DNA of 64,000 bases from an uncultured Bacteroidia bacterium (GTDB taxonomy: Bacteria; Bacteroidota; Bacteroidia; Palsa-948), in the NCBI GenBank assembly GCA_964481195.1, contig CAYZTB010000004.1, positions 24,306 to 88,305 on the forward strand, read 5' to 3'. Every line of letters starts with the position of its first letter. Position 1 is the stretch's first letter. Shown in pieces: positions 5,282 to 63,647 of the stretch. The notes beneath the pieces were generated by a model. That model saw nothing but the letters and a program-made list of their open reading frames with translations, did no database searches and was not told the DNA's origin. Both the position numbers and the translations under genes were made by a program.

Positions 5282-6478
5282 TCTCCCCGCAATAAAACCC
5301 GTTGTCCATGCTGCTTGAAAGTTAAAGCCGCCAGTTACAGCATCAACATTAAGCACCTCACCTGCAAAATACATGTCTGGGCATTTTTTGCTCTCCATCG
5401 TTTCAAAGTTCACATCATCTAGTGAAATTCCCCCGCAAGTAACAAACTCTTCTTTGAAAGTTGTTTTGCCTTCAGCGCTATAACAATCGTTCACGAGGGT
5501 ATTAATTAATTTATTCAGACTTTTTTTAGGAAGTTGGTTCCAGGTAGTTTCAGAAACAATTTCATTTTTCTCCAGCAGATATAACCACAATCTATTAGGT
5601 AACAGAAAAGGATTTTTGTTTCCTATTTGTCGTTTGCCTATTATTTTTAACTCTGTTTCCAGCTGTGCTCTAATTTCTTGTTCGGTATTATTTCCTAGCC
5701 AGTTTACTAGAATTTCAAATTTATAATTCATGGCTTGCAGCTCTCTGGCTCCCCAAGAGGATAGTTTTAAAATTGCAGGCCCACTCATTCCCCAATGTGT
5801 AATCAACAACGGACCTTCGCTAGAAAGTTTTGTGCCCTTCACTTTTACGGATACCGATTCAGCAACTACGCCCATAAGTTTTGTTATGCTTTCTGTTGGC
5901 ATGTTAAACGTAAAAAGCGATGGTACGGGCGAAACAATTTGATGTCCGAGTTCTTTTAGCCAGTTAAATCCTTCCGGCTTTGGGCTTCCTCCGCTGGCAA
6001 TAATAATTTTGTCGGCAACAATTTCGTTGCTACCCACCGAAAGGATAAATCCTTTGCCCTTCTTGGAGATTTTAGAAATAGCAGTTCCTCTTTTTATAAC
6101 AACGCCAAGCTTATCAGCCTCTTTTGTCAGACAATCAATGATGGTTTGCGAATTATCCGTTACGGGAAACATGCGATTATCTTTTTCTGTTTTAAGCTTT
6201 ACGCCTCTGGCTTCAAACCAATGAACAGTATCGTTTGCGTTAAACTGCGTAAAAGCTTTTTTAAGTTGCCTACCGCCACGAGGGTAAAATTTGGCAAGCT
6301 GAGAGTTTTCAAAACAGGCGTGCGAAACATTACATCGGCCACCACCGGATACGCTCACTTTAGCAAGTAGCTTGTCGGATTTTTCAAGTATCGTAACGTC
6401 AAAATCAGGGTGATGATGCTTGCAAGATAATGCAGCAAAAAACCCGGCAGCTCCTCCTCCTATAACTAGTACTTTCAT
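5267..6478 (-). CDS. NAD(P)/FAD-dependent oxidoreductase, HI0933/YhiN (BaiN) family
   Basis: GGGAAG, VSGGGRCNV, LLITHWGMSGPA, GGFNFQAAWTTG. Confidence 0.92.
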   Translation of the reverse strand: MKVLVIGGGAAGFFAALSCKHHHPDFDVTILEKSDKLLAKVSVSGGGRCNVSHACFENSQLAKFYPRGGRQLKKAFTQFNANDTVHWFEARGVKLKTEKDNRMFPVTDNSQTIIDCLTKEADKLGVVIKRGTAISKISKKGKGFILSVGSNEIVADKIIIASGGSPKPEGFNWLKELGHQIVSPVPSLFTFNMPTESITKLMGVVAESVSVKVKGTKLSSEGPLLITHWGMSGPAILKLSSWGARELQAMNYKFEILVNWLGNNTEQEIRAQLETELKIIGKRQIGNKNPFLLPNRLWLYLLEKNEIVSETTWNQLPKKSLNKLINTLVNDCYSAEGKTTFKEEFVTCGGISLDDVNFETMESKKCPDMYFAGEVLNVDAVTGGFNFQAAWTTGFIAGRLSHL

Positions 6479-16464: not shown

Positions 16465-16644
16465 CTTCGACAAGCTCAGTCAACGGGGAGTTTTTTGTGT
16501 CCGAGTAATTTCTGGTAGTTGAGCAGTTTCTGATGATTGAGCTGCTCCAGTGGTTGAGCAGTACCTGGTAGTTGAGCTGCTCCGGTGGTTGAGCAGTACC
16601 TGGTGGTTGAGCAGTACCTGGTGGTTGAGCTTGTCGAAACCACC
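16459..16644. repeat. Family B inverted REP pair enclosing a 7-unit 17/18-bp tandem array
   Basis: CGTTGAC-TTCGACAAGCTCA-GTCAACG at 16459-16485; TTGAGC cores at 16519, 16537, 16554, 16572, 16589, 16607, 16625; terminal GGTGGTT-GAGCTTGTCGA-AACCACC. Confidence 0.9.
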
Positions 16645-16654
16645 GTTAATAAGA

Positions 16655-16948
16655 ATGAAAGGCTGGATGTATATTTTAGAATGTTCTGATGGTAGCTATT
16701 ACACAGGCAGCACCAATAATTTGGAATATCGTTTTCAACAGCATCAAAATGGAGAGGGTGCTAACCATACTAAAAAGCACTTACCTGTGAAACTTGTGTA
16801 CTATGAGGAATATCCAAGAGTAGATCAAGCATTTTATCGCGAGAAACAGGTGCAGGGCTGGAGTCGAAAAAAGAAAGAAGCAATGATTCATAGCAAGCCG
16901 GAGATATTGCCCGAACTATCTAAAAACTACACTCAATTTCCACAATAA
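16655..16948 (+). CDS. Stand-alone GIY-YIG nuclease (UPF0213/YhbQ-like)
   Basis: MKGWMYILECSDGSYYTGST, RFQQH, AFYREKQVQGWSRKKKEA; the track's upstream extension is translated repeat. Confidence 0.9.
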   Translation: MKGWMYILECSDGSYYTGSTNNLEYRFQQHQNGEGANHTKKHLPVKLVYYEEYPRVDQAFYREKQVQGWSRKKKEAMIHSKPEILPELSKNYTQFPQ

Positions 16949-17955: not shown

Positions 17956-18303
17956 TTAGCCCAACTCAGCCAATATTTTCTCAATGGATATCTTCAAGCG
18001 AGGAATATCGGCATACACAACATTCCACACTTGTTTACTGGAGATGCCGAAATATTCATGAGCAATAACGTTTCGGAAAGCTTTAATTCTGTACCATTCT
18101 ACATCTAGATATTTTGCTTTGAGCTCATCTGAAAGTACATTAACTGCCTCGCCAATTATTTCCATTTGCCGCTCCACCGCAGACTGCACCAGAATATTGG
18201 AGCAATAGGCACTCTCATCCATTCCTTTTGTAAATAACAGAATGTGATTCATGGCATCTTGAACGTGAAGCAGGCGTTGCTTATCTCCAAGCGAATTTTT
18301 CAT
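17956..18303 (-). CDS. hepT: HepT/DUF86 HEPN ribonuclease toxin
   Basis: AVERQMEIIGEA and RNVIAHEY (Rx4H plus Tyr). Confidence 0.9.
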   Translation of the reverse strand: MKNSLGDKQRLLHVQDAMNHILLFTKGMDESAYCSNILVQSAVERQMEIIGEAVNVLSDELKAKYLDVEWYRIKAFRNVIAHEYFGISSKQVWNVVYADIPRLKISIEKILAELG

Positions 18304-18593
18304 CAGGGTCTTTCGAAAAGAAGAACTTTGCTTTTATCGACAAATGGACGGATATATTTTGATATTCCATCTTCTGAAACCAAATCAATCTTTTTCCCAA
18401 TAATTTTTTCAAGGTCTAGCTTCCAGCCTATAAAATCGAGTAAACTCACTTTTTTTTGTGTATAATCTACATCTACTAGCAAATCAATATCACTCTGTTC
18501 TGTTTGCTTGTTTTGAGCGTAGGAGCCAAATACATAGACACTTCTGACAGGAAGATTTTGAAAATAATCTTTTATAATCTGTAGGTTATTCAT
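18303..18593 (-). CDS. mntA: MNT minimal nucleotidyltransferase antitoxin
   Basis: VFGSYAQNKQTEQSDIDLLVD; 1-nt overlap with hepT; -7 element (TATCTTTG on minus) at 18601-18608. Confidence 0.9.
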   Translation of the reverse strand: MNNLQIIKDYFQNLPVRSVYVFGSYAQNKQTEQSDIDLLVDVDYTQKKVSLLDFIGWKLDLEKIIGKKIDLVSEDGISKYIRPFVDKSKVLLFERP

Positions 18594-19950: not shown

Positions 19951-20017
19951 TTCAACAAATTTAGCTTTTTCTCTAAAGGGTAAAGAGGGGGCTTTCAATT
20001 AAAACGGCATTCGATTT

Positions 20018-20100
20018 TTCAACACAGAGAGCACAGAGTTTACTGAGATTCACAGAGAAACTCTGTGTTACTCTGTTTGCTTCGCGAACTCTGTGTTAAA
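20018..20100. mobile_element. Gene-less family A (CACAGAG) inward-facing doublet, MITE-like
   Basis: TTCAACACAGAGAGCACAGAG...GAGATTCACAGAG-AAA-CTCTGTGTTACTC...CTCTGTGTTAAA; arms match the flanks of GxxExxY at 62495/62914. Confidence 0.7.
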
Positions 20101-20217
20101 GATTTTATTATTCGTATTAAAATACGTTTAATAGCAAACAATAACATTCAAGCTAAAACTCTTTCAATAGCTCTTAATAAATTATATCTTTGCGCCACAA
20201 TCTTAAATATAAAAATT

Positions 20218-20628: not shown

Positions 20629-20703
20629 TACGACAAAACTAAGACCAATTTCATTTAGTAGAATTCAATTTGAAGGCATTGGCTTAGTTTTTTAAGTATT
20701 CAT

Positions 20704-20834
20704 CCTTTGTGAACTTTGTGGGCTGATTCTTTGTGTTCTTTGCGGTTTCTGCCTTTTTAACAGCCGAAACCACAAAGAGAATCATGTAAATACACGCTCC
20801 AAAGGAGTCCCTTCGGGGCAAAGAACATAGAGGA
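20704..20834. repeat. Family A' (CACAAAG) outward-facing doublet with a nested family D element (20796-20819)
   Basis: Reverse-complement similarity to 28964-29070 (TTTGTGGGCTG, TTTGYGGTTTCTG, CAGCCGAAACCACAAAG); GCTCCAAAGGAGTCCCTTCGGGGC interrupts a CAC^AAAG unit. Confidence 0.8.
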
Positions 20835-28588: not shown

Positions 28589-28972
28589 ATGCTGACAGAA
28601 AATCAACTATCAAATAAAATAATCGGACTTGCGATGCAAGTTCACACCACACTGGGTCCGGGCCTGCTCGAAAGCGCATATAAGGAGTGCATGCAATACA
28701 AAATAAAAAAAGCGGGTCTATGCGTAGAAAAGGAAAAAGCCATGCCACTCATTTTTGAAGAAATAAAGCTGGAATGCGCATACCGCATGGACCTGCTCGT
28801 AGAAAGTAAGGTAGTAATAGAGATCAAGAGTGTAGAGGCGTTGAATGATGTACACCTAGCGCAAACACTCACCTACATGAAACTTGGGAGTTATAAACTA
28901 GGGTTACTGATCAATTTTAATGTTGCACATCTAAGAAATGGAATAAAACGTGTTATAAACGGCACTTTGTGA
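28589..28972 (+). CDS. GxxExxY protein (PD-(D/E)XK nuclease superfamily), copy 1
   Basis: [41 protein letters not shown]. Confidence 0.93.
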   Translation: MLTENQLSNKIIGLAMQVHTTLGPGLLESAYKECMQYKIKKAGLCVEKEKAMPLIFEEIKLECAYRMDLLVESKVVIEIKSVEALNDVHLAQTLTYMKLGSYKLGLLINFNVAHLRNGIKRVINGTL

Positions 28973-29070
28973 CCTCTGTGCCAGCCATAGTGTCCTTTGT
29001 GGTTTCGGCTGATAAATACAGAAACCACAAAGGACACAAAGTGAATAAACAGCCCACAAAGGGCACGAAG
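28964..29070. repeat. Family A' doublet overlapping the GxxExxY-1 stop codon
   Basis: CACTTTGTGACCTCTGTG...CCTTTGTGGTTTCGGCTG-ATAAATA-CAGAAACCACAAAGGACACAAAG...CCCACAAAGGGCACGAAG. Confidence 0.85.
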
Positions 29071-57441: not shown

Positions 57442-59430
57442 TTATTTTTTGTTTGCTAATTGTTTTAGCTCTTCCAGTTCAGCCTCATTTACAAACCCAC
57501 CTTTTTCTTTTGCGGTAAGCATATCCTGTAATGCCTCGTTAAATTTCCCTAAACTTTTATACGAAAGTGCACGGTTGGCATAAGCGCTAACATTATCGGG
57601 CTTCAGCTCCAATGATTTACTAAAGCTTATTACAGACTCTTCATATTTACCACTCATGCTTAAAATGATTCCTCGGTTGTTATAGGCTTGTCCGTTTTCG
57701 GGAGCAAATTCAATTGTTTTATTTATATCTGCCAAGGCTTTGTTTAGCTTACCGCTTTTTCCATACGCTTCGGAGCGAGCATAAAAGCCTTCGCCACTTT
57801 GAGGGTTAATATTTATTATTTCAGAAAAATCTTTTATGGCACTTTCAAAATAATTTTTTTCTACATAAATAGTACCCCTGCTTAAGTAGTTCAGATAATC
57901 TGTTGGAACTTGGTTTATGGCTTTAGTGAAAGAATTAATGGCATCGTCTTTCTTTTTCAGCCGCACTTCGATAAGTCCTTTGTTTCTCCAGGCATTGGGA
58001 TAGCGTGGTTTTAATTTCACTAATGCAATAAAATCTTGCAGCGCTTCTTCGTTACGCGAGGAATCGGATAGCACAGCTCCGCGGTTGGTATAAAGGATAG
58101 CGGCTTGATGTCCGTTATTTATGGCATCAGTATAAAGCGTGATGCTATCGTGCCATACTTTGTTTCTATTAAATGAAGAGTAAGCTAAAAGCAGCAAGCA
58201 AACACCGGCTCCTGATAACACCATTTTATTTTTTAATAAAGGAGTTATGTAATAGGCGACAATAAAAAATAATCCTATAGAAGGCAGGTAGGTGTATCGA
58301 TCGGCATACAAGGCATCGCCAACAGGTAAAAGTTGTAACACCAGCGCGATAGTTATTATAAAAAATGCTGCACCAAACAAAACAAATTTCGATTCTTTAA
58401 AATATTTCCAGATGATAAATGCAAGTGCTAACAACACGGCCGGGCTTAAATAAACCCAGATGGTATTTATTTTATCATCGGTTTCGGGATAGGGGTAGAA
58501 GCAGCTAAGATTTATTGGTAAAATAATTTTATGCAGGTAGGTCATGAGTGCATAACAAGAAAATAATAGTCGTTCGTACAATGGAAAGTATTGAAACGTT
58601 TGCATGGCACCTGCTTTGCCTTGCACATTGATGGCCAGCACACCAAAAGCAATAGCCAATAAAAAGAAAGGAACTTTTTCTAAAATAGTTTGCTTGTTTA
58701 TTTTTCTGCCCAACAAAAAATCCACAGCAAAGAAAACTAAGGGCAACACCACTGCTTGTGCTTTGGAGAGAAGAGCGAGGGTGAAGAGGAAGAGAAGAAG
58801 CCCCACCCTTGCCCTCCCCATAAGGGAGGGAAATAGTGCGACAGTTCCTCCCCTAGCGGGGGAGGTAAGTAGAGAGCCCGATATATACAAATACAAACTC
58901 CACAAAAAGAAAAATCCGTACAACACATCTTTGCGTTCGGATATCCAGGCAACGGATTCTACATGCAACGGATGAATACCAAATAGGAGGGAGGTGAGGA
59001 AAGCTACTAAGAGCGCATTGCTTTTGAAGAGAAAGGATCCAATTTTTTGTATTATCAAAAAAACAAAAAGCGTATTCAGTAAATGTAAAACCAGGTTTGT
59101 TAAATGATATCCAAATGGATTTAGTTCCCAGATTTTATATTCCAGCATATAACTTAACATAGTAAGCGGCTGATAATTACCCACAAACTGTTCCGAGAAA
59201 ATTAGTTTGATGTTAACTACATTTAAAGTGTGAACTGCCGGATTGTTAATGAGGTATTGGGGATCATCCAGGTTAACGAATTTATTTTGTAAGGAAGGCA
59301 AGAAAACTAAAAAGGTAATGGCTAAGATTATAGGTAAAAAGTATTTTTTATACTTTGAAAAAACACCTTCTGCAGGAATTTTATTCGAAGTAGCGGCTTT
59401 AATTTTCGGAGCAGGCTTTGCCATCCTCAA
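57442..59430 (-). CDS. TMTC-like GT-C membrane protein with TPRs and an in-frame repeat insertion
   Basis: NLDDPQY, NYQPLT, HPLHVESVAWISERKDVL, LLSKAQAV, ADRYTYLP, TPR tail. Confidence 0.88.
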   Translation of the reverse strand: MRMAKPAPKIKAATSNKIPAEGVFSKYKKYFLPIILAITFLVFLPSLQNKFVNLDDPQYLINNPAVHTLNVVNIKLIFSEQFVGNYQPLTMLSYMLEYKIWELNPFGYHLTNLVLHLLNTLFVFLIIQKIGSFLFKSNALLVAFLTSLLFGIHPLHVESVAWISERKDVLYGFFFLWSLYLYISGSLLTSPARGGTVALFPSLMGRARVGLLLFLFTLALLSKAQAVVLPLVFFAVDFLLGRKINKQTILEKVPFFLLAIAFGVLAINVQGKAGAMQTFQYFPLYERLLFSCYALMTYLHKIILPINLSCFYPYPETDDKINTIWVYLSPAVLLALAFIIWKYFKESKFVLFGAAFFIITIALVLQLLPVGDALYADRYTYLPSIGLFFIVAYYITPLLKNKMVLSGAGVCLLLLAYSSFNRNKVWHDSITLYTDAINNGHQAAILYTNRGAVLSDSSRNEEALQDFIALVKLKPRYPNAWRNKGLIEVRLKKKDDAINSFTKAINQVPTDYLNYLSRGTIYVEKNYFESAIKDFSEIININPQSGEGFYARSEAYGKSGKLNKALADINKTIEFAPENGQAYNNRGIILSMSGKYEESVISFSKSLELKPDNVSAYANRALSYKSLGKFNEALQDMLTAKEKGGFVNEAELEELKQLANKK
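58800..58878. repeat. Family C palindromic doublet, in-frame inside the TMTC-like gene
   Basis: CCCTCCC-CATAA-GGGAGGG, spacer, CCTCCCC-TAGC-GGGGGAGG; encodes GSLLTSPARGGTVALFPSLMGRARVG. Confidence 0.85.
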
Positions 59431-59504: not shown

Positions 59505-59590
59505 CTCCGTGTTACTCTGTGCTCTTTGTGTCTCTGTGTTGGATGTTTTAACACATAGCCCACAGAGTAGTAAGAGTCCCACAGAGAGAC
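59505..59590. repeat. Family A outward-facing doublet downstream of sdhB
   Basis: CTCCGTGTTACTCTGTG...CTCTGTGTT-GGATGTT-TTAACACATAGCCCACAGAG...GAGTCCCACAGAG. Confidence 0.8.
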
Positions 59591-59656: not shown

Positions 59657-60400
59657 TTATTCAGCAAGATTGGACATCATATATTCTCGGTTCATTCTAG
59701 CAATGTTTGAAAGCGATATCTCTTTTGGACATTCTGCTTCGCAGCTGCCAGTGTTGGTACAATTTCCAAACCCTTCGGCATCCATTTGTGCCACCATACT
59801 TTGTACACGTTCCTTGCGCTCCACATGTCCTTGAGGCAATAATGCTAGCTGAGAAACTTTTGCAGAAACAAAAAGCATAGCCGATGAATTTTTGCAAGCA
59901 GCAACACAAGCACCACATCCAATGCAGGCAGCAGCGGCAAAAGCTTCATCTGCATCGGGCTTTGGAATAGTTATGTTGTTTGCATCTTTTGCGTTTCCGG
60001 TATTTACAGATACAAAACCTCCTGCAGCGATGATGCGGTCAAAACCGGATCGATCCACCACCAAATCTTTCACCACCGGAAATCCTTTGGCTCTCCAAGG
60101 TTCAATTGTTATAGTATCTCCATCTTTGAAAGCACGCATGTGCAGCTGACACGTAGTGGTTCCATCCCAAGGGCCGTGCGCTCGTCCATTAATAAACATG
60201 GAACACATTCCACAAATTCCTTCGCGGCAGTCGTGATCAAAGGCAACGGGCTCCTCGTTCTTTCCAATGAGACGCTCGTTAAGCACATCAATCATTTCCA
60301 AAAACGACATATCTTCCGATATCCCATCCACCGCATAACTGGCAAAGCCGCCTTTCTCGTTTTTGTTTTTTTGTCTCCAGATTTTTAATGTCAAATTCAT
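59657..60400 (-). CDS. sdhB: Succinate dehydrogenase/fumarate reductase Fe-S subunit
   Basis: [29 protein letters not shown]. Confidence 0.96.
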
Positions 60401-60414
60401 AGGTTGTATTTTTT

Positions 60415-60500
60415 CTCAGTGTAACTCTGGTTTTACCTCTGTGTTCTCTGTGTTGAAAAATTTAACACAGAGCGCGCAGAGGCGAATGAGTTTCACAGAG
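60415..60500. repeat. Family A outward-facing doublet between sdhA and sdhB
   Basis: CTCAGTGTAACTC...CTCTGTGTTCTCTGTGTTGAA-AAA-TTTAACACAGAGCGCGCAGAG...GAGTTTCACAGAG. Confidence 0.85.
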
Positions 60501-60502
60501 TA

Positions 60503-62482
60503 TTATTTATAACTACGCTGCGATGGATGAACAATGTCAAAAACCAACTCTTCCTTATGTAATTCAGATTCGCCAACTCCTTTGTATTCCCAGGCTGCTA
60601 CGTAGCTGAAGTTTTCATCATCGCGTTTTGCTTCTCCATCTTCGGTTTGAGATTCTTCACGAAAATGGCCTCCGCAAGATTCTTTTCTGTTGAGTGCATC
60701 TTTACACATTAATTCACCAAGCTCAATAAAATCTGCAACACGACCTGCTTTTTCCAGTTCTAAGTTCATTTCATTTTGCTCTCCTGGAATTCGAACATCC
60801 TTCCAGAATTCTTCGCGCAGCGCACGAATTTCGGCAATGGCTTCGTTCAATCCTTTTTCATTTCTTGCCATGCCGCACTTGTCCCACATGATTTTTCCTA
60901 ATTTTTTGTGGAAATGATCTACGGACTTTGTTCCTTTGATGCTCATTAATTTATCCAGCTGCTCCTGCACTTTCTTTTCGGCTGCTACAAATGCTTCGTG
61001 GTCGGTAGGGATTGCTTTGGTGCGTATGTCTTGCGATAAATATGTTCCGATGGTGTAGGGCAATATAAAATATCCGTCCGCCAATCCTTGCATGAGTGCT
61101 GATGCTCCTAAGCGATTTGCTCCGTGATCCGAAAAGTTTGCTTCGCCCAGCGCGTACAACCCCGGTACGGATGTCATCAAGTCATAATCTACCCACAGTC
61201 CGCCCATGGTATAATGCACGGCAGGATAAATACGCATGGGAGTTTCGTACGGATTTTCTCCGGTAATTTTTGCATACATGTCAAATAGGTTGCCGTATTT
61301 TTCTTTTACCACTTCTTTTCCAAGTTCAATAATCCGTTCGTTGGAAACATTATGCAGGTTTAGTTTGTTAACCTGACTTTTTCCGTAGCGCACAATGGCA
61401 GCAGTAAAATCTAGGAACACCGCCATTTTAGAAGTGCCCACTCCGTACCCTTCATCGCATCTTTCTTTAGCTGCGCGTGATGCCACATCGCGTGGAACCA
61501 AGTTTCCAAAGGCGGGGTATCTTCTTTCTAAATAATAATCTCTTTCTTCTTCCGGAATGTCTTTAGCTTTTCTAGCATCTCCTTTTGCTTTGGGCACCCA
61601 TATGCGTCCGTCATTTCGTAAGGATTCAGACATCAAGGTTAGTTTGGATTGATGATCTCCCGAAACAGGAATGCAGGTAGGATGTATTTGAGTGTAGCAA
61701 GGATTTCCAAAGAATGCTCCTTGCTTATGCGCTTTCCATGCTGCGGTTACATTAGAACCCATGGCGTTGGTAGAAAGATAAAATACGTTTCCATAACCAC
61801 CGGTGCAAAGTAAAACAGCGTGACCGAAATGCCTTTCCAGTTTTCCGCTGATTAGATCACGTGCAATGATGCCTCGCGCTTTTCCATCAATCATAACAAT
61901 GTCCAGCATCTCGTGACGAGAATACATTTTTACGGTACCAAGGCCTACTTGTCTTTCTAAAGCAGAATATGCTCCGAGCAAAAGTTGTTGTCCGGTTTGT
62001 CCTGCAGCATAAAAAGTACGCTGCACTTGTGTTCCACCAAACGAGCGGTTGCTTAAATAGCCTCCGTATTCACGAGCAAAAGGAACTCCTTGCGCTACAC
62101 ACTGATCAATAATATTGGAAGATACTTCTGCTAAGCGATATACGTTTCCTTCGCGTGCACGGTAGTCGCCACCTTTTACGGTATCGTAAAAAAGTCGAAA
62201 CACGCTATCGCCATCGTTCTGATAATTTTTTGCTGCGTTAATTCCACCCTGTGCTGCGATGGAGTGTGCACGTCTTGGAGAATCTTGAAAGCAGAAACAT
62301 TTTACTTGGTAGCCAAGCTCTGCCAATGAAGATGCTGCTGATGCACCTGCAAGACCGGATCCTACCACAATGATTTCGATGCTGCGTTTGTTGGCAGGGT
62401 TTACCAGTGGGACAGTGGATTTATATTTGACCCACTTTGTTTCAAGATCTCCCGCAGGAATTTTAGAATTTATTTTGCTCAT
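60503..62482 (-). CDS. sdhA: Succinate dehydrogenase/fumarate reductase flavoprotein
   Basis: [47 protein letters not shown]. Confidence 0.97.
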
Positions 62483-62494
62483 AGTATTTACTTT

Positions 62495-62958
62495 TTTAAC
62501 ACAGAGGGCATGGAGAAAAAGAGTTACACGGAGTTTAAATTGCCGTTTATTTTTCTTCGGATACCTTCTTTTAATAAGGGAACATTAAAGTTAATTAAAA
62601 GTCCAAGTTTTTTATTTGCTAGTTTAAGATACGTTACTAATTGCGCTTCGTGAACAGGTAAAATATGTTCAACAGATTTAAATTCTAAAATTATCAAATC
62701 GTTCACTAGGGTATCAATAACAAATTCTTTATCAAGTTTTTCGCCTTTAAATGTAACTGGTAATATTACTTGTCTTTGCACATACAGCCCTTCTTTCAGC
62801 ATTACGTTCTCAGCACATATTTCATATACAGATTCCATTAAACCCGGACCAAGCTCTTTGTGCACTTCCATGCAACAATGAATTATTTGTTGAGAAAGAT
62901 TATTGTAATCCTTCTCTGTGAAACTCTTAACCCTCTGTGTGCTCTGTGTTGAATTCAT
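62495..62958. mobile_element. GxxExxY gene bounded by inverted family A arms, inserted between sdhC and sdhA
   Basis: Left arm TTTAACACAGAG...GAGTTACACGGAG (62495-62533); right arm CTCTGTGAAACTC...CTCTGTGTGCTCTGTGTTGAA (62914-62953). Confidence 0.75.
62524..62958 (-). CDS. GxxExxY protein, copy 2
   Basis: [41 protein letters not shown]; N-terminal [15 protein letters not shown] and C-terminal NSV* are repeat-encoded. Confidence 0.93.
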
Positions 62959-62963
62959 ATTCT

Positions 62964-63647
62964 TTAGAACGTATTGCCTGCAATGCCGAAGTAAAACAAA
63001 ACAGGAATGGACGCGAAGCCTACAAACACAATTCCGAAAGCAAACGCACTTCCGATTAGGGATAATACAGGCATGTATTTTTTATTATTTAATCCTAAGC
63101 TTTGAAAAGCAGATTGGAAGCCATGGTTTAAATGAAATGATAAGATGAGGACAGATACAACATACAAAAGCACATACCAGCCATTTTGAAAAGCAACTTT
63201 CACTGCTTGTGCTACGTTTAGTTGATCTTCACCACCAACGGTGCCGGAGATTCGGTAAGGAACAAAGAAGTGCCAAAGGTGTACCACGATAAAGAAAAAT
63301 ATTAAGCTGCCGGTAATACCCATGTTGCGAGAAAACCAATTGCTGGTTTCGCCCACTTTGTACATCGCATATTTTACTGGACGCGCATCGGAGTTTTGTT
63401 TGGTTAAATTAATGGCTTGTAATACATGCACGATGATGGCTCCAAACAAAAATACTTCTACTATACGAATGAATAAGCTGTGTACTAAGGTGTGAGAATA
63501 CTCTACAAAGGCAAGACCTCCGTCAGAAGCAAACAATAATAGGTTTCCGTAAAGGTGCTCCACTAAAAATACGCAGAGGAATAAGCCGGTAGCAGCCATC
63601 ACAGTTTTTCTGCCAAGGCTGGAATTTAAGAATTGGGTAATGGTCAT
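62964..63647 (-). CDS. sdhC: Succinate dehydrogenase cytochrome b subunit
   Basis: GRKTVMAATGLFL, HLYGNL, VHLWHF, HLNHGFQSAFQSLG. Confidence 0.95.
   Translation of the reverse strand: MTITQFLNSSLGRKTVMAATGLFLCVFLVEHLYGNLLLFASDGGLAFVEYSHTLVHSLFIRIVEVFLFGAIIVHVLQAINLTKQNSDARPVKYAMYKVGETSNWFSRNMGITGSLIFFFIVVHLWHFFVPYRISGTVGGEDQLNVAQAVKVAFQNGWYVLLYVVSVLILSFHLNHGFQSAFQSLGLNNKKYMPVLSLIGSAFAFGIVFVGFASIPVLFYFGIAGNTF

Follow-up and report, generated by a model that had tools for sequence, protein, structure and literature searches.

Why does a gene for a small predicted nuclease lie between sdhC and sdhA, in an operon that in Bacteroidota is normally contiguous? The question is raised by a 64,000-nucleotide stretch of DNA from an uncultured Bacteroidia bacterium of the Palsa-948 lineage (assembly GCA_964481195.1, contig CAYZTB010000004.1, positions 24,306 to 88,305), which we call the window. 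A preliminary description, made from the letters alone, had found a GxxExxY gene enclosed by inverted-repeat arms at this place and had proposed an autonomous element with non-autonomous derivatives, analogous either to insertion sequences (IS) and miniature inverted-repeat transposable elements (MITEs) or to the tyrosine transposases associated with repetitive extragenic palindromic sequences (REP; RAYTs) and the REP doublets that form hairpins (REPINs). We find that gene and arms, together the cassette, are best read as a slow, mostly vertical partnership between a repeat and a nuclease, of the REP/RAYT or NTS/Ssn type and not a fast IS/MITE. We put the probability of this reading at about 45%.

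A predicted nuclease gene inside the sdh operon

Four genes make up the locus, all on the minus strand, in the order sdhC, GxxExxY open reading frame (ORF), sdhA, sdhB:

62964-63647, minus strand: sdhC, cytochrome b558 subunit (TIGR02046, 1.9e-45)
62524-62958, minus strand: GxxExxY ORF, 144 aa (TIGR04256, 1.7e-39; PF13366 PDDEXK_3, 1.7e-38)
60503-62482, minus strand: sdhA, flavoprotein subunit (NF005749)
59657-60400, minus strand: sdhB, iron-sulfur subunit (NF005746)

The ORF scores 134.8 bits against TIGR04256 (cut-off 35) and 132 bits against PF13366 (cut-off 22), which bears out the 144-aa PD-(D/E)XK gene first reported here. Gene callers place its start at M30, giving 115 aa instead of 144. 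The sdhC stop codon lies 5 nt from the ATG of the ORF, and the 3' arm ends 12 nt before the ATG of sdhA. Since this leaves no room for a promoter of its own, the cassette is probably transcribed and translated within the sdh mRNA: it is a promoter-less unit of about 465 bp that runs in the same direction as the operon. The contig comes from a microbial-mat metagenome, and proteins of the type IX secretion system type are among the products of neighboring genes.

What does the ORF encode? In a domain search the protein matched PF13366 alone, and the DDE, HUH, serine and tyrosine transposase folds did not appear. G39-E42-Y45, D82, E92-x-K94, H103 and Q106-Y110 show little or no variation among 40 sequences, and the window protein has all of them; they make up the GxxExxY, D, ExK and QxxxY motifs. 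AlphaFold (AF2) run on the single sequence gave a predicted local distance difference test (pLDDT) score of 45, and the alignment of 40 sequences was used instead. The resulting model has a pLDDT of 90.4, with residues 1-9 disordered (pLDDT < 50) and a first helix that starts at residue 15. Its top structural matches are Cas4 SSO0001, lambda exonuclease, LHK-Exo and RecE (template modeling score ~0.48). A PADLOC scan returned a weak Cas4 match (6e-4), whereas the PHROGs library and a sequence search of the PDB yielded no match to the protein. Judged by its motifs and fold, the ORF is predicted to encode a minimal RecB/Cas4-like PD-(D/E)XK nuclease with its catalytic residues intact.

The family is large, with 15,874 representative clusters at 50% identity (E <= 1e-3). 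About ten of these clusters are proteins of 266-295 aa with two GxxExxY domains in tandem, which suggests that the single-domain proteins act as dimers. A survey of the PD-(D/E)XK superfamily lists the function of GxxExxY/PF13366 as "Unknown" (PMC3424549); the family was thus rightly introduced as uncharacterized.

The arms are arrays of phased heptamers

An arm profile hidden Markov model (HMM) was built from 18 arms of relatives' cassettes, with the window sequence left out. Run against the window, it gave exactly eight matches at E <= 0.05, and these form four pairs. One pair, 62914-62953 (minus, 4e-12) and 62492-62533 (plus, 1e-6), converges around the GxxExxY ORF. The two arms of the cassette are as follows:

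62914-62956, minus strand: 5' (L-type) arm, TTCAACACAGAG-CA-CACAGAG-GGTTAA-GAGTTTCACAGAG, encoding residues 2-15 (arm HMM 4.4e-12)
62492-62533, plus strand: 3' (R-type) arm, partly decayed (CATGGAG, CACGGAG; arm HMM 1.2e-6)

The general architecture is TTTT(C/T)AACACAGAG-nn-CACAGAG-n6-GAGTT(T/A)CACAGAG, so that each arm of about 40 bp comprises three phased CACAGAG heptamers with spacings of 9 and then 19 nt. The arms also reach into the gene. The start codon of relatives usually lies in the inner unit of the left arm (ATGAGTTTCACAGAG, which reads MSFTE), and their stop codon in that of the right arm (CTCTGTGTAACTC). In the window copy the usual inner ATG has become AAG, and an in-frame ATG directly outside the arm serves instead; the stop codon, TAA at 62524-62526, lies within the inner unit of the 3' arm. 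The statement that the arms hold the N-terminal codons and the stop of the gene is therefore correct.

The claim of two inward arms of about 40 bp needs one qualification. The relatives' HMM recovers both, yet as a plain inverted repeat the window copy is unremarkable: its two arms are only ~70-76% complementary and its score of 11 falls at the 95th percentile of control ORFs. The significance of the window arms comes from the family profile and not from the plain inverted-repeat score. In the outer flanks the inverted repeat is merely extended by a T-run and an A-run.

Gene and arms occur together in relatives

A metagenome scan with the cassette protein supplied 80 loci from relatives, all on metagenomic contigs. 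The flanking inverted repeat exceeded the 99th percentile of 222 control ORFs at 57 of 77 GxxExxY loci, with a median score of 24 against 8 in the controls. All relatives with 58-84% protein identity have CACAGAG-type arms, and every one of their 37 arm matches lies within 190 nt of the gene. The cassettes occupy at least nine contexts (ComA/translocase, TPR/FAA hydrolase, S24 peptidase/RecA, NMO/?, DegT/hexapeptide transferase, Lpd-like/ferrochelatase, epimerase/unknown, ?/holin-like and sdhC/sdhA). Co-orientation with both neighbors was seen at 48 of 60 scorable loci, with median gaps of ~37 nt, many of these loci being syntenic and hence non-independent. These comparisons support the view that gene and arms form one unit.

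More distant relatives (47-55% identity) keep the design of the arms but use other words: CACGGAG (x3), CGCAAAG (x4) and CGCAGAG. The arm word thus differs by protein subfamily, as it also does in a second paralog within the window (CACAAAG, below), which indicates that every subfamily of the nuclease is paired with a repeat word of its own.

Some relatives are pseudogenes that still have arms: the gene of L012 (592-1131) is frameshifted, and that of L055 is interrupted by an in-frame stop. Directly after the right arm of L012 come a left arm and the start of a possible second, tandem cassette, at which point the contig ends. In L014 (985-1091) the right arm has grown to several tandem copies of its outer two units; arrays can therefore grow through unit duplication.

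The sdhC-sdhA junction is empty, gutted or occupied

Relatives of the junction were gathered by a scan for sdhC contigs, widened by protein search and contig look-ups. Their junctions, given with sdhC identity, are in these states:

L088, 85%: empty, 3 nt (TAA-TGT-ATG)
L089, 82%: empty, 3 nt
L007, 81%: empty, 3 nt
L006, 77%: empty, 17 nt
L090 to L092, 83%: gutted cassette
L093, 81%: unrelated gene-less palindrome

As the preliminary description stated for Bacteroidota in general, sdhC and sdhA are normally contiguous, and the compact junctions of L006, L007, L088 and L089 are empty sites. The comparison supports the cassette as an insertion into a normally compact sdhC-sdhA junction. What is left in L090-L092 is a left arm with a few N-terminal codons, and the final 17 codons with a right arm; some 108 codons have been lost.

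How often has the site changed state? A tree of concatenated sdhC and sdhA separates the window and L089 from L090, L006 and L007 (support 99.6/100), and this split implies that the cassette was gained or lost at the site at least twice. In a tree of sdhC only (52 taxa), the window never grouped with L090 in 200 bootstrap trees, and no split was strongly supported. Either the cassette inserted twice independently, or it inserted once and was precisely lost at least once. An odd left junction, TAA-AGnnn-ATGAWT-arm, is common to the window and L090.

The sdhA-sdhB gap varies as well: it measures 11 nt in L007, 34 nt in L006, 124 nt in L089 and 102 nt in the window, where it contains an arm doublet. 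The gap of L090 holds an inserted ORF, and the gaps of L089 and L090 carry a different repeat.

Other repeats were seen at the same junctions. Within the gutted cassette of L090 (840-1160) two foreign palindromes are nested, one bounded by CCGTTCACAG...CTGTGAACGG, the other a GGGTGCATAACAAA...TTTGTTATGCACCC hairpin with the core CCTCCTTCTCC...GGAGAAGG. The palindrome in the sdhC-sdhA spacer of L093 (4185-4299) has CACCGAT/ATCGGTG units, so that one stop-start junction has been colonized by differing repeat families. The ORF in the sdhA-sdhB gap of L090 (3165-3650) encodes 110 aa and has no significant Pfam match; it lies between GGCAG-unit repeats and GATTCGTAA-unit repeats. L089 has similar repeats in this gap (6150-6300) without the 110-aa ORF. 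The unit in these gaps may belong to a separate family of small cassettes whose ends are not palindromic.

Gene-less doublets and a second paralog in the window

The remaining three pairs of arm HMM matches in the window have no gene. They are listed here with a second GxxExxY paralog and the arms of its type:

20015-20058 (plus, 4.5e-12) and 20061-20101 (minus, 7.8e-9), 2 nt apart: inward arm doublet, gene-less
60415-60460 (minus) and 60461-60500 (plus): outward arm doublet, gene-less (arm HMM 4e-9, 4e-10)
59509-59541 (minus) and 59545-59587 (plus): outward arm doublet, gene-less (arm HMM 0.049, 4e-8)
28589-28972, plus strand: second GxxExxY paralog, 127 aa, 45% identical, arm word CACAAAG (tblastn 1e-32)
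28965-29070: CACAAAG-type arms 3' of the second paralog, an R arm over the stop codon and then an outward L arm
20700-20785: gene-less copy with CACAAAG-type arms

The preliminary description had noted arms without a gene at 20018, 59505 and 60415. All three sites are indeed gene-less; only the one at 20018 faces inward like the arms of the cassette, and those at 59505 and 60415 face outward, their outer TTAAC ends abutting. The inward doublet (20015-20101) lies upstream of a disulphide-isomerase-family gene (Pfam PF06491) and folds with z = -4.4 and -5.4. The doublet at 60415-60500 fills the sdhA-sdhB gap and forms a strong hairpin (-35.8 kcal/mol, z = -7.3). It joins a start-bearing L-type arm (ATGAGTTTCACAGAG) to a stop-bearing R-type arm (GTGTAACTC) and on the plus strand reads "...SV*", R arm, then L arm, "ATG SFTE". 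The doublet at 59509-59587, just 3' of sdhB, is the most decayed (fold z = -3.4). The arms 3' of the second paralog also fold as a hairpin (-37.5 kcal/mol, z = -5.5).

Are these doublets derivatives of cassettes? The start- and stop-bearing arms retained at 60415-60500 support a derivation of the gene-less copies from cassettes, and with it the gene-less derivatives proposed earlier. Autonomy of the element, in the sense that its nuclease would move it, is conjecture. The outward doublets read like the R/L junction of tandem or circular cassettes.

The window holds further small repeats and genes. A stand-alone GIY-YIG nuclease gene of 97 aa (16655-16945; PF01541, 6e-19) is preceded by tandem repeats of ~18 nt (GGTGGTTGAGCAGTACCT-like, 16520-16640). 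This is the published Ssn layout, and gene and repeats make a second pair of repeat and small nuclease in the window, with a different fold. At 17959-18593, some 1.4 kb away from the doublet at 20015, a gene for a HepT-like RNase (PF01934) adjoins one for a nucleotidyltransferase (PF18765/PF01909); the two make up a toxin-antitoxin pair of the HepT/MntA type. At 58800-58870 a GC-rich double hairpin (CCCTCCCcataaGGGAGGG ... CCTCCCCtagcGGGGGAGG; contig GC 38%) lies in frame within a gene for a 662-aa TPR membrane protein (57442-59430, minus strand) and looks like a small repeat element inside a coding sequence.

The arms are conserved over long vertical inheritance

At some 30 loci with CACGGAG arms, from soil and peat, the cassette occupies one syntenic site, and both the cassettes and their flanks are 80-87% identical. 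The heptamer columns are conserved at 96% in the non-coding right arm and 99% in the left arm; adjacent non-coding columns are conserved at 15-39%, and codon positions 1, 2 and 3 of the upstream gene at 92, 94 and 74%. By this measure the heptamer words are under selection even where the cassette stayed put. This long vertical inheritance is seen in a sister subfamily; the CACAGAG subfamily of the window offers four locus pairs with a common context. We conclude that arms and gene-less doublets are maintained over long periods.

The two analogies drawn at the outset part ways here. The one with RAYT/REPIN fits, as a related lineage inherits the cassette vertically at one site with strongly conserved arms, a behavior like that of REPIN/RAYT or of Ssn. 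The one with IS/MITE fits poorly: no target-site duplication, no near-identical copies in other flanks and no polymorphism in the source population were seen.

Several observations count against a repeat-nuclease partnership as well. Target-site duplications, which the preliminary description had proposed to look for, were sought at seven cassettes, and no direct repeat was found outside the arms. Among 82 cassettes there is no pair in which a near-identical cassette sits in unrelated flanks; pairs with at least 80% nucleotide identity have homologous flanks too, similarly diverged. In the source population, each contig with an identical sdhC that reaches past sdhC also has the cassette. The assembled contigs of several metagenome runs, including runs of 2024 and 2025, have the same junctions, with no empty-site joint among those listed; rare variants could escape notice in such contigs. 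The arm copies in the window are mutually only ~75-80% alike, so that any spread must be old. The window cassette itself has a decayed 3' arm and an inner ATG mutated to AAG. The outward doublets, which are without a gene remnant, fit no simple model. The left junction shared by the window and L090 makes one old insertion, followed by precise loss, possible. Finally, arms conserved at a fixed site could equally mean a function at the level of the host or of RNA.

One contig from run X1 joins the 5' arm of the cassette to the sdhA-sdhB doublet (62926 to 60437), with ATTTTT between them. The two places have a 22-nt stretch in common (95% identical), and the joint was set aside as most likely an assembly artefact, a rearranged or additional copy being less probable.

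A proposed mechanism

How might a nuclease and its repeats be maintained together? In the partnership that we favor, the unit entered the sdhC-sdhA spacer of this Bacteroidota lineage in the direction of the operon. The heptamer arrays would serve as recognition sites of the encoded nuclease, probably a dimer; at 9 and 19 nt, close to one and two turns of the helix, their spacings would place the units on one of its faces. The nuclease may bind and nick the arms, most likely in a single-stranded form or as extruded hairpins, because its nearest structural relatives act on single-stranded DNA (ssDNA) or DNA ends. Host repair could then occasionally copy, excise or re-join DNA bounded by arms. 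The products would be new cassettes, inward doublets from which the gene has been lost, and outward doublets, which would be R/L junctions. Central to this scheme is an action of the nuclease on the arms, which we infer.

A bolder proposal, which we regard as doubtful, is that GxxExxY genes with phased-heptamer arms constitute a very widespread and unrecognized class of minimal DNA element; the family has ~16,000 clusters at 50% identity. Its sole encoded factor would be a RecB/Cas4-like nuclease of ~125 aa that recognizes its own arm arrays. By way of cuts at hairpin or single-stranded arms, followed by host repair, the element would insert at the stop/start of co-transcribed genes, excise precisely and shed gene-less doublets. 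If so, the window would show several stages of a life cycle: the cassette while intact, the inward doublet and the two outward R/L junctions, to which the relatives would add a gutted relic and empty sites. The preliminary description knew of no formal account of such an element, and likewise we found no description of the GxxExxY gene-plus-arm layout in the searchable literature.

The consequences would reach beyond this locus. Phased heptamer arrays that co-vary with the nuclease are a concrete candidate substrate for a family that is among the larger ones of prokaryotes and has no assigned function. Should the nuclease act on its arms, it would be the third fold, after HUH/RAYT and GIY-YIG/Ssn, to maintain its own genomic repeats, and GxxExxY nucleases could be a source of small sequence-programmable nucleases. 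Annotation is affected too: cassettes split conserved operons, their arms lengthen or shorten called ORFs, and gene-less doublets account for many "REP-like" hairpins in Bacteroidota and other phyla.

Alternative explanations

Perhaps the nuclease serves the host and has no role in the spread of the repeats? It would then be a sequence-specific, probably single-strand-specific endonuclease that cuts dispersed heptamer hairpins and modulates transformation, recombination or repair. The arms would lie at the gene through co-evolution of enzyme and target, or because they regulate the gene. There is a published precedent in the Ssn GIY-YIG nucleases with their own hairpin repeats (PMC11893778), and in the window, too, a small GIY-YIG gene is preceded by repeats of its own. 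The long vertical inheritance of the cassette and the strong conservation of its heptamers speak for such a function, as do fold relatives that work on ssDNA or DNA ends. However, three features are left unexplained: the inner units delimit the whole ORF exactly, so that its start and stop codons lie in the arms; in many contexts the unit has landed just where one gene of a tightly coupled operon stops and the next one starts; and gene-less doublets keep vestiges of start and stop. We consider this explanation unlikely.

Alternatively, the arms may matter only as RNA. They would be REP-like RNA hairpins (stabilizers, RNase III sites, insulators or attenuators) that make an inserted gene tolerable in an operon or tune the ratios of the sdh subunits, and the nuclease would have an unrelated role and leave the arms untouched. 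Every arm site at the sdh locus is intercistronic or 3' of the operon, the doublets fold strongly as RNA, and the cassette is co-oriented with the operon at most loci. A comparable layout of stem plus ORF is seen in those intervening sequences of 23S rRNA that carry an ORF. Against this, the long-range stem around the gene is weak (~11 paired bases, z = -2.1), and there is no Rfam match, the only hits being chance microRNA-hairpin matches far below gathering scores; these two findings make a purely RNA-level role less likely. Moreover, conservation falls on the heptamer word and its phasing and not on pairing; spacer sequence is free to vary, and protein subfamilies differ in their word. Recognition by a protein fits this pattern better than RNA structure does. 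We judge the RNA-level explanation improbable.

Could the cassette be a classical autonomous transposon with MITE-like derivatives, in which the PD-(D/E)XK nuclease is the sole transposase and cut-and-paste is active? The terminal inverted repeats and the inward gene-less derivative at 20015-20101 would be in keeping with it, as would the empty sites in relatives, a tree that demands at least two gain/loss events at one site, and the spread of the subfamily over many contexts. Yet the seven cassettes lack a target-site duplication, near-identical copies in unrelated flanks are missing among the 82 cassettes, cassette and flanks diverge in parallel, and the assembled contigs of the source population show no polymorphism. 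The cassette protein, in addition, has no known transposase fold, and the outward doublets misfit a MITE model. We give this explanation little chance.

Chance resemblance or misassembly, suggested by the plain inverted-repeat score at only the control 95th percentile and by one run's chimeric contig joint at common arm sequence, is effectively refuted, as the arm profile of other organisms matches both ends (4e-12 and 1e-6) and otherwise only three doublets in 64 kb, and independent assemblies and runs have the same junctions.

Comparison with known systems

By structure, the closest proteins are the Cas4/RecB nucleases, which provide the best structural matches and the weak HMM match and have the E-D-ExK and QxxxY motifs in common with the cassette protein. 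Unlike them, the cassette protein has only ~125 aa and is without the cysteine set of an Fe-S cluster. There are no cas genes nearby, the other contexts are housekeeping genes, and the gene stands alone in a repeat-framed cassette.

By layout, the intervening sequences of 23S rRNA come to mind. They too have a small ORF within inverted repeats, co-oriented in a transcribed essential locus. The host locus of the cassette, by contrast, is a protein-coding operon with no Rfam match, and its ORF belongs to PF13366 and not to the four-helix-bundle proteins of intervening sequences.

IS elements and MITEs resemble the cassette in having terminal inverted repeats around one ORF, an inward gene-less derivative and empty sites in relatives. 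They differ in that the cassette is without a DDE, HUH, serine or tyrosine transposase, shows no target-site duplication and no recent identical copies among the 82 cassettes, and has relatives that are vertically inherited with conserved ends.

A nearer parallel is Ssn/NTS. Ssn (GIY-YIG) nucleases, described in 2025, are encoded by small stand-alone genes, 42% of which have a hairpin repeat of their own on either side; the repeat has hundreds of genomic copies and is cut as ssDNA by Ssn (PMC11893778). As in the cassette, a small stand-alone nuclease gene lies between its own hairpin-forming repeats, the repeat is dispersed through the genome, and its sequence co-varies with the enzyme homolog (PMC11893778). 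The enzymes differ, however: Ssn is a GIY-YIG protein (cd10448, with NTS/SRM repeats), whereas the cassette protein is a PD-(D/E)XK protein that matches PF13366 only. Repeat cleavage is shown for Ssn and would be, for the GxxExxY cassette, a prediction. The cassette also differs in being wedged into the stop-to-start gap of operon genes and in having arms that carry start and stop codons.

The other parallel is REP/REPIN-RAYT. Again a single small nuclease-type gene lies between inverted copies of a short repeat, and the repeat is also dispersed between genes as gene-less palindromic doublets in alternating orientations. REP doublets of alternating orientation are known as bacterial interspersed mosaic elements (BIMEs). 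Both systems are mostly vertical and long-persisting, and neither has a target-site duplication; preprints on REPIN/RAYT systems describe them as persistent and mostly vertically inherited. The differences lie in the enzyme, a PD-(D/E)XK (RecB/Cas4-like) protein of ~125 aa and not a Y1/HUH transposase, and in the arms, which are three phased heptamers that overlap the start and stop of the ORF, whereas REP is one hairpin with a conserved tetranucleotide. The cassette differs further in that several cognate gene/repeat pairs occur together in 64 kb.

The cassette thus lacks the defining enzyme feature of REP/RAYT, of Ssn and of IS elements, and is a member of none of them. Its closest behavioral analogues are REP/REPIN-RAYT and Ssn/NTS, and we rate it as a new form of the arrangement in which a repeat is paired with a dedicated nuclease.

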